The notes under the pieces: generated by a model
Told to the model about the DNA's origin: nothing
Databases searched by the model: none
What the model saw: the letters and a program-made list of their open reading frames with translations, nothing else
Shown: piece after piece, positions 24,514 to 27,602 of the stretch
Layout of the letters: every line of letters begins with the position of its first letter
How positions within the stretch are numbered: position 1 is the stretch's first letter
From: a bacterium
Lineage (GTDB): Bacteria > Sumerlaeota > Sumerlaeia > MVZB01
DNA: 38,955 nucleotides
Direction: 5' to 3'
NCBI GenBank assembly: GCA_023480605.1
Contig: JAMCWS010000349.1
Span: 6,132 to 45,086 of the forward strand
Translations under genes and position numbers: made by a program

Positions 24514-27500
24514 ACATGGCACCCGATCTCTCGACGCCCTGGCATAGGGCTTCTTATGAGGCATTTCTGCACGAGCGGTTGCCGCAACTGCTTGGCGAGC
24601 GGCTGCCGCTGGCCAGTTACCGCGTGGAGTACATGAGCGACCGCTCGTGCCGTATCGTCCTGTCGCTCGCGATGCAAACGGGTGACGTGCCGCTCGACTT
24701 TGCCGGCCTTCCCCAACCGGATGACGAAGGGATCTTCATGATCGACGGCACGAAGCGCGTGGTCGTGCCCTTGGCGTCATCGGAGGATCTGAGCGCGGCC
24801 GAGGTCCGGTGTGTCGGAGAGCAGCTTTACAGCTTCATCGAGGCGCGCCTCGGGCAGGTTGGCGCCGACATGCCCGCCGATCCGTCATTGCTGCGGGCGC
24901 TCGTGCCTTTGGATAAGTGGTTCGCGGAATTTTTCTTAATGGGGCTCATTTATGAAGACGCAAGCGAACCAAAGGTGATCCATCCGACATCCCAGGCGCT
25001 TGACGTAACGAATTGGCTGGCGACTCAAACCCACCTGCGCCGAATCCTGATCGAGAATCCCCACTCGGTGATTCACCCCGGCCAGATGGGGCGCGCTTGC
25101 CCGTTCGAGACGCCCGAAGGCCCAAACATCGGTCGGGTGCTGTCGCTCGCATGCGGAGCAACCATCCGTAACGGCAAAATTATCGTGGTCGATGATGCGC
25201 CCGCGGCGGCCCTGGGCCTGACGGCGTCGATGGTGCCGTTCGTTGAACATGACGACGCCAATCGGCTCCTCATGGGTGTCAACATGATGCGCCAGTGGCA
25301 GGTGCCGCTCGAGCCCGAACCGGCGCTGGTTCAGACCGGCAAAGAACCGAGCGCGGCGGGGTTCTGGTGCGGCGTGAATCTCCTCACCGCCTTTGTATCC
25401 TGGGGGGGCGACACTTACGAGGATGGACTGCTCATCAGCGAGTCGTGCACGCGTCGATTCCGGTTCGAGCATCCGGTGGAGCCGGGCGACAAGCTCAGCA
25501 ATCGCCACGGACAAAAGGGCGTCATCAGCCGCATCGCCCCTGACGACGAGATGCCCCATCTGGCCGACGGAACGCCCGTGGAACTGGTCTGCAATTTCAT
25601 CGGCCTGCACTCCCGGATGATCTTCGGGCAGGTGTGCGAAGCCCTCGCCGGCCGGATCGCGCGCGCCGAGGGGACGCCCGTGGTCGCGCCGCCCTTCCAC
25701 GCGCCAAATGTGGACGAATTGCGCGAACGCCTGAGGCGCGCGGGACTGCCCGCCTCAGGCATGGAAATCCTTACGATTGGCAAAGATGGCCCGCCGCTTC
25801 AGCGGCCAAGCACCATCGGCTGGATTTACTGGGGCCGGACGGTCCACGATGTGCGCACGAAGCTCCACACCTTCGTGTCGACGCCGGGCGAAGGGCAAGA
25901 ACAAGGGGAACTTGAATACTACGCGTTGCGCGAGGCGGGCGCGTTCGAGAACGTGGCCGAATCTTTCAACACCCGTTCGGCAAGGCGTTCTGACGCCGCA
26001 ACACTCGCCGCGCGCCTGGCCGCCGGCCCGGTCGAACAGGCTCCGCCGCCGCCGCCATGGTTTGCAGACCTCATGAGCCGACTCGCCGCCGCGAGCATCA
26101 AGGCGACGCTCGATGAGGAGAAGCTGCATTTCAAGATGGCCGCGCCTTCCGAGCCGGCGCTCACGTTGGCCCGTCCGTTGCCCCACCCCTGGCTGGCGGA
26201 AATTGAAGTCGCCGCGGTCGGCGTCCGCGAGAACGACCCGTTCTACCACGCCCTGGCGCAGGCCAATGCGCGCGCCGAGCGGGCCCTGGCGTCCGGAGCG
26301 CCCGAGGTTCTCACGCACCAGACCCTCCACCAGCTTCGTAAACGCTTGACCGACTATTTCGATGGTCTGGTCCCTCACGAGATCATGCTTCCGAGTGAAA
26401 GGAATCTGTTCAGCGGCCGGTCGGTCATCATTCCGGGCGGGGATCTGACGTTTGAACAGGTCGGTCTGCCCGAGGGGATGGCGTGGGAGCTATTCGGACC
26501 GATTCTGGCGCGCGAGATGGGCGATTCGCAGGAAATCGCAAATCGGACGCCACGGGTCGCCGCAGCTCTCGACAAACTCATGGCCCGCTCGTGGGTCGTT
26601 GTCAATCGCCAGCCCTCGTTCTGGGCCGCGAGCCTGTTGGCCTTCCATCCGGTGCGCGTGCCGGGGCGGGCCATCCGACTGCATCCCCTCGCGTGCCCCT
26701 TGCTCAATGCCGACTTTGACGGCGACCCGGTTGCCGTCTTCCTGCCCATCACCGAAGCCGCCCAGCGCGAGGCCGGCGAACGGCTGAGTGTTGTGGGCCA
26801 GTTGCGCCGTGATCCGGAGCGGCTCCTGCCCTGGCTTTGCCCAACCCAAGATGCGTTGTGGGGCCTTGCCGCGCTCAGTTTCGATGCGGCCCGACGCGAC
26901 GAAATCCGCCGTTTGACAGGCGCCGATCTCATCGGCGCGGAGGGCTTCGTCACGCGCGCGTCGCTGATCGAAGGCCTTCGCGCCATTCATGAAGCCGAAG
27001 GTCCCCAGCGCGCACTTCAGGTCAGCGAGGCACTGATGCGACTCGGCATGCGCATCGCCAAAGAGAGCGGCGCTTCGTTTAGTCCCTTCTTCGGCGAGAG
27101 CGTCAGCCGCCCGCCCCTTCCCGCAATCGATCGCCGTGAGGAGTGGCTTGACACCTGCGCCGATCTGACCGAGCGAATCGCCTCACGCGTCGACTACGAC
27201 GCCGCGGACCTGGGGCCACAACTCTTGGCCGTGAAGAGCGGCGCGCGGGGCAATCTTCAGCAGCTGGTCAGCCTTCCCGGCACGCCGGGAGTCGTCATCG
27301 ACGGGGCCGGGGGCTTCGTTCCCGTGCATCGCGGCTTCGCCGAAGGGCTCCGGCCCGAGGATGCCTTCGCCCGCGTCTTCGGCGCGCGTCTGGGTTTAGC
27401 CCGGGTGCTTCTGGAACCGGCCAGCCTCTGGCATGCCTATGCCGTCGAGCATCCCGGGCCGTCGAAGGGCTTTAATGTCCTCGCGCGCGCCATGCGCGCC

Positions 27501-27602
27501 CGTCGCCCCGGCGTCGTCTTCGCCCGCGCCGCGGCCATCGGCGAGATCGACCCCCTCGCCGATCTCGACAGCCGGCTGCTGGTAGGCTTGCCGGCGAAAT
27601 AA
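24510..27602 (+). CDS. Miniature single-chain RNA polymerase-like protein: fused RpoB(beta)-like and RpoC(beta')-like catalytic cores, 1,030 aa
   Basis: The ORF is intact. ATG 24510 sits in an ATGA overlap with the sigma stop, with gaaggggga upstream. Beta and beta' signature motifs occur in the canonical order (see the motif features and findings). TAA at 27600-27602. Confidence 0.9.
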   Translation: MNMAPDLSTPWHRASYEAFLHERLPQLLGERLPLASYRVEYMSDRSCRIVLSLAMQTGDVPLDFAGLPQPDDEGIFMIDGTKRVVVPLASSEDLSAAEVRCVGEQLYSFIEARLGQVGADMPADPSLLRALVPLDKWFAEFFLMGLIYEDASEPKVIHPTSQALDVTNWLATQTHLRRILIENPHSVIHPGQMGRACPFETPEGPNIGRVLSLACGATIRNGKIIVVDDAPAAALGLTASMVPFVEHDDANRLLMGVNMMRQWQVPLEPEPALVQTGKEPSAAGFWCGVNLLTAFVSWGGDTYEDGLLISESCTRRFRFEHPVEPGDKLSNRHGQKGVISRIAPDDEMPHLADGTPVELVCNFIGLHSRMIFGQVCEALAGRIARAEGTPVVAPPFHAPNVDELRERLRRAGLPASGMEILTIGKDGPPLQRPSTIGWIYWGRTVHDVRTKLHTFVSTPGEGQEQGELEYYALREAGAFENVAESFNTRSARRSDAATLAARLAAGPVEQAPPPPPWFADLMSRLAAASIKATLDEEKLHFKMAAPSEPALTLARPLPHPWLAEIEVAAVGVRENDPFYHALAQANARAERALASGAPEVLTHQTLHQLRKRLTDYFDGLVPHEIMLPSERNLFSGRSVIIPGGDLTFEQVGLPEGMAWELFGPILAREMGDSQEIANRTPRVAAALDKLMARSWVVVNRQPSFWAASLLAFHPVRVPGRAIRLHPLACPLLNADFDGDPVAVFLPITEAAQREAGERLSVVGQLRRDPERLLPWLCPTQDALWGLAALSFDAARRDEIRRLTGADLIGAEGFVTRASLIEGLRAIHEAEGPQRALQVSEALMRLGMRIAKESGASFSPFFGESVSRPPLPAIDRREEWLDTCADLTERIASRVDYDAADLGPQLLAVKSGARGNLQQLVSLPGTPGVVIDGAGGFVPVHRGFAEGLRPEDAFARVFGARLGLARVLLEPASLWHAYAVEHPGPSKGFNVLARAMRARRPGVVFARAAAIGEIDPLADLDSRLLVGLPAK
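25107..25133 (+). other. RpoB-type ETPEGPNIG motif inside the mini-RNAP
   Basis: Translates exactly to ETPEGPNIG, in the context HPGQMGRACPFETPEGPNIGRVLSLA (compare bacterial RpoB HP.HYGR.CPIETPEGPNIGLI.SL). Confidence 0.9.
25242..25265 (+). other. RpoB-type (V)EHDDANR motif inside the mini-RNAP
   Basis: Context LGLTASMVPFVEHDDANRLLMGVNMMRQ (compare RpoB ..[24 protein letters not shown]). Confidence 0.9.
25485..25520 (+). other. RpoB double-psi beta-barrel motif GDKxxxRHGxKG inside the mini-RNAP
   Basis: GDKLSNRHGQKG is followed by VISRIAPDDEMPHLADGTPVELVCNFIGLHSRMIFGQ (compare RpoB GDKMAGRHGNKGVISK...[22 protein letters not shown]). Confidence 0.9.
26232..26366 (+). other. Beta' clamp-helix (coiled-coil)-like segment, the canonical primary sigma region-2 docking site
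   Basis: NDPFYHALAQANARAERALASGAPEVLTHQTLHQLRKRLTDYFDG aligns by eye to E. coli beta' ..[46 protein letters not shown]. Similarity is weaker than for the catalytic motifs. Confidence 0.55.
26706..26726 (+). other. RpoC catalytic Mg-binding motif NADFDGD inside the mini-RNAP
   Basis: aat gcc gac ttt gac ggc gac, in the context AIRLHPLACPLLNADFDGDPVAVFLPIT (compare RpoC [28 protein letters not shown]). Confidence 0.95.

Follow-up and report, generated by a model that had tools for sequence, protein, structure and literature searches.

A sigma-linked, single-chain beta/beta-prime mini RNA polymerase that lacks a trigger loop and probably joins the bridge helix directly to region H

The window analysed here is a 38,955-nucleotide (nt) stretch of bacterial DNA (contig JAMCWS010000349.1, our C182:6132-45086), and on its forward strand an open reading frame (ORF) at 24480-27602, 3123 nt long, encodes P0001, a single polypeptide of 1040 amino acids. 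The protein resembles both large subunits of the multisubunit RNA polymerases, with beta and beta-prime parts in one ORF, whereas in those enzymes two separate chains assemble on an alpha dimer with omega, and we refer to it as a mini polymerase; a sigma factor gene overlaps the start of its ORF. The features of this gene pair, including those that bear on the end of the polymerase, are as follows.

23911-24513, + strand: gene for a 200-amino-acid sigma-70 family protein of the extracytoplasmic function (ECF) type (Pfam Sigma70_r2, 3e-19; Sigma70_r4_2, 5e-11)
24480-27602, + strand: gene for the single-chain beta/beta-prime mini RNA polymerase P0001 (Pfam, NCBIfam, PDB chains, AlphaFold2, Foldseek)
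26706-26726, + strand: NADFDGD catalytic Mg-binding motif, residues 743-749 (D747, G748 and D749 invariant, D745 in 77 of 78 family members)
27135-27353, + strand: the part of beta-prime region F before the bridge helix (F-loop region), approximately residues 886-958 (HMMER; weak NCBIfam rpoC2 match)
27354-27440, + strand: bridge helix, residues 959-987 (AlphaFold2 helices 959-978 and 980-987; hhalign)
27441-27467, + strand: linker, residues 988-996, short, poorly conserved and modelled with low confidence, standing where canonical beta-prime has about 500 residues
27468-27593, + strand: near-invariant C-terminal block, residues 997-1038, GFxVLARAMRAxxPGxVFARAAAxGEVDPLxDxDSRLFVGLP, with probable homology to region H of beta-prime, A'' and Rpb1
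27600-27602, + strand: TAA stop codon (in homologues 0-14 residues separate the tail from the C-terminus; nothing resembling beta-prime is encoded downstream in any frame)

The beta-like half of P0001, approximately residues 1-550, matches Pfam Rpb2_3 and Rpb2_6 (5e-37) and carries the strings GRACPFETPEGPNIG and KLSNRHGQKG, and the beta-prime-like half, approximately residues 555-1040, matches Rpb1_2 (2e-19) and contains the NADFDGD motif. NCBIfam identifies both subunits (rpoB, 1.6e-53; rpoC, 3.1e-37), and the PDB matches are likewise RNA polymerase beta and beta-prime chains. AlphaFold2, run on 78 members of the family, gives a model with a pLDDT of 92.5 and a pTM of 0.90, the top Foldseek matches of which are bacterial beta and beta-prime (E ~1e-24). 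The N-terminal clamp-core strands are retained (PHPW, the counterpart of HIWF), as is the clamp coiled coil.

The resemblance to beta-prime continues up to and through the bridge helix. HMMER aligns positions 858-950 of the family profile to beta-prime residues ~731-832, NCBIfam rpoC2 matches P0001 residues 886-977, weakly, and HMMER and hhalign both align residues ~948-991 to the bridge-helix segment of beta-prime (hhalign probability 83-90%). The string FGARLGLARVLLEP, which comprises residues 967-980 (nt 27378-27419) and which an earlier note on this DNA had called bridge-helix-like, lies inside this segment and belongs to a true bridge helix. The note's observation that only about 70 residues follow is borne out, with 74 residues to the C-terminus counted from the start of the string and 60 counted from its end. 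Beyond the bridge helix the alignment of the full-length family hidden Markov model (HMM) to beta-prime stops. The loop that comes next is modelled with a pLDDT below 50 at residues 985-991, and the conservation of residues 979-999 is 0.40, compared with 0.66 for the whole protein.

P0001 ends ...GVVFARAAAIGEIDPLADLDSRLLVGLPAK, and its relatives end in the same way. A search of 5.8 billion proteins returned 732 matches, the best 120 of which we treat as close homologues; these come from Hydrogenedentes, Chloroflexi, Armatimonadota, Planctomycetota, Poribacteria and other groups, are all annotated as hypothetical, share 49-62% identity with P0001 over 98-99% of the query, and are 1002-1064 amino acids long except for an 840-amino-acid fragment, P0034. 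A profile of the bridge helix plus tail finds a single block of ~95 residues ending 0-14 residues before the C-terminus in 120 of 121 sequences, the sole exception probably being that fragment. A second search, of 1.84 billion representatives of 50%-identity clusters with filters off, added members with 35-62% identity, the full-length ones 945-1101 amino acids long; scores in this search fall directly from the family to canonical fused rpoBC proteins of 2200-2500 amino acids, with no intermediates. The same block is present in 111 further cluster representatives, and in the 89 that span the whole 99-position model it occupies 84-110 residues and again ends 0-14 residues before the C-terminus. 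No insert the size of a trigger loop interrupts the block in either the 120 close homologues or the 111 cluster representatives, and only ~50 residues follow the bridge helix across family members. Because homologues share this end and lack such an insert, a sequencing error is excluded for practical purposes, and by these comparisons the end of the polymerase gene is real and the gene is not cut short.

The tail itself is the best-conserved part of the family: the mean majority fraction is 0.84 over residues 1000-1037, against 0.66 for the protein overall and 0.76 for the two barrels, and R1003, R1006, A1017, L1026 and G1036 are invariant. Its modelled structure consists of short helices at 1000-1006, 1010-1019 and 1029-1034 with a beta-bridge at 1022-1023. 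When a profile of 66 tails was compared by hhalign with 76 diverse bacterial beta-prime sequences, one alternative match was obtained, to the string VLTEAAixGkxDxLxGLKENVIxG in region H, with a weak P of 0.034. Restricting the comparison to the region H window gave a score of 22 over 27 columns (P=4e-4), and column-shuffled tails equalled the observed region H score in 4 of 150 trials. With its filters off, HMMER found some domain of the tail profile in 67 beta-prime sequences, and in 52 of them the best one fell on region H, with scores no higher than 6 bits. An eight-tail profile searched against 177,635 distinct PDB sequences (E<=10) had a sole match, residues 331-368 of the archaeal A'' chain 4qiw_C (a weak E=0.16), and these residues are the archaeal region H. 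Each of these tests is weak alone, but all converge on region H and none on the trigger loop. We conclude, with modest statistical support from the sequence, that the tail corresponds to beta-prime region H, comprising the end of switch 1, the clamp core and switch 5. We note that R1003 and R1006 (nt 27486-27497) sit in the VLARAMRA helix, and that the pentapeptide VLARA is identical at the aligned position of Thermococcus A''; the two arginines are candidates for switch 1-type nucleic-acid contacts.

In the beta-prime proteins of relatives the bridge-helix match lies at ~813-834 and region H at ~1350-1393, with the trigger-helix motifs GEPGTQ (at 963) and TGGLPR (at 1170) between them. Given this spacing, about 500 residues appear to have been replaced by a linker of about 10, and the segment thus replaced is the one that in canonical beta-prime holds the trigger helices, the lineage insertion, the jaw and the remaining cleft module. 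Direct examination of P0001 agrees: Rpb1_5, the Pfam domain of the trigger loop, is not found in it, Pfam is empty on the last 161 residues, hhalign makes no alignment of the tail on the motifs of the trigger-helix 1 or trigger-helix 2 windows of beta-prime, and the AlphaFold2 model leaves no space for two trigger helices after the bridge helix. From its sequence, then, the mini polymerase lacks a trigger loop and jaw. The earlier note had listed the rest of the trigger loop, the jaw and the C-terminal clamp as absent; the first two are indeed missing, together with any insert elsewhere in the family that might hold them, but the clamp part of the claim is not supported, with a region H-like block present in cis. 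Nor does the ORF end about where the trigger loop would begin, as had been supposed; judged by homology, its bridge helix is apparently followed at once by region H.

The explanation that we favour, and consider probable, is that P0001 is complete and belongs to a conserved family of mini RNA polymerases that are sigma-linked, made as one beta/beta-prime chain and devoid of a trigger loop. About 10 linker residues would separate a full bridge helix (959-987) from a 40-residue region H block, which supplies switch 5, the last part of switch 1 and, for the clamp core, its C-terminal strand and helices. Such an arrangement would reflect an internal excision of about 500 residues, including both trigger helices, any lineage-specific insertion, the jaw and the remaining cleft module; about 50 residues beyond region H would also have been lost, and no other gene would supply the missing parts. 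Region H would have been kept since it completes the clamp core, and its retention makes structural sense because the N-terminal strands of that core (~540-585) and the sigma-binding coiled coil persist. Several points weigh against this explanation. The statistics for region H are weak (PDB E=0.16, hhalign P ~0.03, HMMER <=6 bits), part of the tail may have a structural role like that of a trigger helix, and the genome of the window is a metagenome-assembled genome (MAG) that is 72% complete and in which the canonical rpoC is unassembled.

The alternative that survives best, although we think it unlikely, is that the tail is a degenerate trigger helix 1 that folds back beside the bridge helix as a minimal trigger element, in which case the protein would be truncated and region H absent. 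There are precedents in QDE-1, phi14:2 gp66 and the P23-45 polymerases, in which a helix comes right after the bridge helix, and the AAAIGEIDPL of the tail is superficially similar to the trigger-helix string to which the earlier note had loosely aligned it. That alignment is not upheld by the profile comparisons: hhalign on the trigger-helix 1 window yields a match of only 7 columns, off the motif, with a score of 11, compared with 22 over 27 columns for region H, and the search of the whole PDB returns the region H of A'' alone. The model, moreover, shows three short helices and a beta-bridge rather than a single long helix.

A second alternative holds that the protein makes no RNA and is instead a sigma-binding decoy or regulator, in which case the missing trigger loop would say nothing about catalysis. 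We regard this as quite improbable in view of the residues that have been maintained, counted over the 78 family members. Besides the aspartates of the NADFDGD motif in the beta-prime barrel, K338, R342 and G344 of the beta barrel are invariant, with K346 present in 77 of the 78 and the E314/D315 pair (the ED pair for Mg-B) conserved; R710 is conserved, and R970 of the bridge helix is found in 77 members. Such near-invariance of catalytic residues is not expected of a decoy.

The mini polymerase is thus probably an active enzyme, to judge from its sequence, and, because the catalytic residues are conserved, it probably functions without a trigger loop as YonO does. RNA would be polymerised by a two-metal active centre made of the two double-psi barrels, the F-loop and the bridge helix alone. 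By analogy, catalysis without a trigger loop would be expected to entail no intrinsic transcript cleavage, lower accuracy, less pausing and indifference to ligands that act via the trigger loop. The effects on rate, fidelity, pausing and inhibitor sensitivity that the earlier note had predicted are a reasonable inference when compared with YonO (PMC5467207).

Less probable still is that another polypeptide provides the trigger loop, jaw and associated parts in trans, in the manner of K2ORF7p or the archaeal A''. The yeast pair K2ORF6p/K2ORF7p is a precedent (PMC6211774), and the archaeal A'/A'' split falls at the same point. We compared eight loci, those of the window and of L015-L017 and L019-L022, and found no conserved downstream gene, the genes there being unrelated or on the opposite strand and including CbiA/glyoxalase genes, transposases and HEPN/GmrSD genes; tblastx detects conservation of the downstream sequence in the closely related pair L015/L019 only. 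Six-frame translations of the window and the seven other loci, about 130 kb in all, contain no match to a profile of the canonical beta-prime segment C-terminal to the bridge helix (best E 0.22). Three large genomes that carry the mini polymerase have one Rpb1_5 each, within a full-length canonical rpoC far from the mini-polymerase locus. The search for a separate small ORF that the earlier note had proposed thus came back empty in the eight loci and, by Rpb1_5, in the three large genomes. In addition, region H, which is carried on K2ORF7p in yeast, is here apparently already in cis. The remaining alternative is that a longer beta-prime-like ORF is hidden by a sequencing error, as the earlier note had considered, by a fault of assembly or by recent truncation into a pseudogene. 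The window comes from a fragmented MAG of 449 contigs, but this alternative is effectively refuted by the same end in more than 230 homologues from independent assemblies, by a tail that is the best-conserved part of the protein, and by downstream DNA without beta-prime-like coding in any frame.

Comparison with known polymerases places the family close to the bacterial enzyme. With canonical RpoB and RpoC it shares homology of sequence and fold, the catalytic motifs, the fork region, switch 2, the clamp coiled coil, the F-loop, the bridge helix and probably region H, as well as pairing with a sigma-70 family factor. It differs in size, with 1040 amino acids in one chain rather than about 2700 in two, in having no trigger loop, jaw, lineage insertion or extension past region H, and in being sporadic and additional to the normal rpoBC.

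YonO, encoded by the SPbeta prophage of B. subtilis, is a single-chain two-barrel DNA-dependent RNA polymerase of ~100 kDa with no detectable trigger loop (PMC5467207). It is fast and processive and makes RNA as efficiently as the cellular enzyme, but it makes more errors, passes through pauses and lacks hydrolytic (transcript cleavage) activity (PMC5467207). Both barrels in a single chain and the absence of trigger-loop homology are common to YonO and the mini polymerase. YonO, however, is phage-encoded and belongs to a clade of enzymes like the RNA-dependent RNA polymerases (RdRP), with a very distant similarity to beta/beta-prime that is confined to a few active-site residues (PMC5467207), whereas the mini polymerase has strong rpoB and rpoC matches over several regions, is chromosomal and is sigma-linked, and by this description is set apart from YonO. 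As far as sequence relationships indicate, it is a derived beta/beta-prime enzyme and not a member of the YonO clade.

The nearest architectural parallel is the enzyme of the yeast killer plasmid, a virus-like element (VLE). K2ORF6p is a beta/beta-prime fusion of ~980 amino acids that ends right after the bridge helix, and K2ORF7p is a 132-amino-acid subunit with the following beta-prime regions, namely the trigger helix region and the switch 5 region; a fusion of the K2ORF6p type was described as unknown in any other polymerase (PMC6211774). Both the VLE enzyme and the mini polymerase combine a beta/beta-prime fusion with a retained conserved C-terminal beta-prime block. In the mini polymerase, however, region H is apparently fused in cis, there are no trigger helices and no conserved small partner gene was found in the loci compared, and the VLE enzyme, unlike the mini polymerase, is eukaryotic, of poxvirus-like origin and without a sigma factor. 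The archaeal A'/A'' split has its discontinuity at the same point after the bridge helix, and the sole PDB match of the tail is to the region H of A'', but A'' has a full trigger loop and jaw before region H and the mini polymerase has neither. QDE-1, gp66 of the crAss-like phage phi14:2 and gp64/gp96 of P23-45 (PMC10770324) are, like the mini polymerase, single-chain two-barrel enzymes with a bridge helix; they differ in that the sequence after the bridge helix in the mini polymerase matches region H and not the trigger loop. A description of the mini polymerase family was not found in the literature searched.

The mobile trigger loop is considered a key element of catalysis, fidelity, pausing and intrinsic cleavage in every cellular RNA polymerase, and essential if RNA is to be made fast and accurately. 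Engineered trigger-loop deletions cripple the E. coli enzyme (PMC5467207). The family would represent a natural, clean trigger-loop deletion in a near-bacterial beta/beta-prime enzyme that is under strong selection across many phyla, and it offers a testable system for what a bacterial-type active centre can do without this element. It also defines a minimal set of retained beta-prime parts, namely the clamp core, coiled coil, switch 2, barrel, F-loop, bridge helix and, if our assignment is correct, region H, and reading the C-terminus as region H rather than as a trigger-helix stump alters the design of constructs and mutants. A bolder proposal, which we put forward tentatively and with some doubt, is that the mini polymerase, a natural enzyme derived from beta/beta-prime and dependent on sigma, transcribes from specific promoters without a trigger loop, jaw or secondary-channel regulation. 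If so, the trigger loop would be dispensable for a bacterial-type active centre, and the positioning of substrate would have been taken over by R1003 and R1006 of the tail or by the F-loop and bridge helix. Antibiotics directed at the trigger loop, and control by Gre, DksA and ppGpp, would then intrinsically have no effect on the enzyme, which could act as a dedicated reserve system for transcription or as one used in conflicts.

The association with the sigma factor is a constant feature of the loci compared: an orthologue with 44-52% identity lies directly upstream of the polymerase, on the same strand, in all seven of the other loci. The surroundings of the pair vary. In the window it is flanked by genes for glycoside hydrolases and oxidoreductases, with no defence-like or mobile genes beside it. 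At L017:5272-12995 the pair adjoins defence-like genes (HEPN_RiboL-PSP, GmrSD_N and a DUF5682/AAA_5/VWA cluster), and at L016:3400-15700 it adjoins insertion sequence (IS) transposases, PIN toxins and a PD-(D/E)XK gene. In the window the polymerase stop is followed by about 500 nt of apparently non-coding DNA (27603-28097), and a consensus scan for terminators and promoters around the gene end gave nothing above chance, including a sigma-70-like TTAAAA-18-TATAAT at 27630-27659. Two ORFs further downstream have no Pfam match, one of 148 amino acids at 28098-28544 and one of 672 amino acids at 30350-32368 on the - strand, where the DNA is ~70% G+C.

The distribution of the family is patchy. The mini polymerase is present in one of 75 genomes of the window's phylum and in none of 20 relatives; all 20 of these have a canonical rpoC match, 19 of which reach the family cut-off. 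Its presence in so few genomes suggests that the gene was acquired horizontally. In the window's own genome, the MAG described above (72% complete, 449 contigs), the mini polymerase accounts for the only rpoC-like matches. A scan of genome contigs with the family alignment recovered mostly canonical rpoB-rpoC operons and four true family loci. Searches of phage and plasmid collections gave no member of the family, PADLOC has no match for the polymerase, and Foldseek against viral models returned ordinary viral polymerase subunits only. At rank 35 among models in BFVD is A0A8S5SD80_1, a siphovirus 'minor tail protein', which aligns with the mini polymerase over 1162 columns (TMq 0.41) and probably represents a further tail-fused two-barrel polymerase of the P23-45 gp96 kind.

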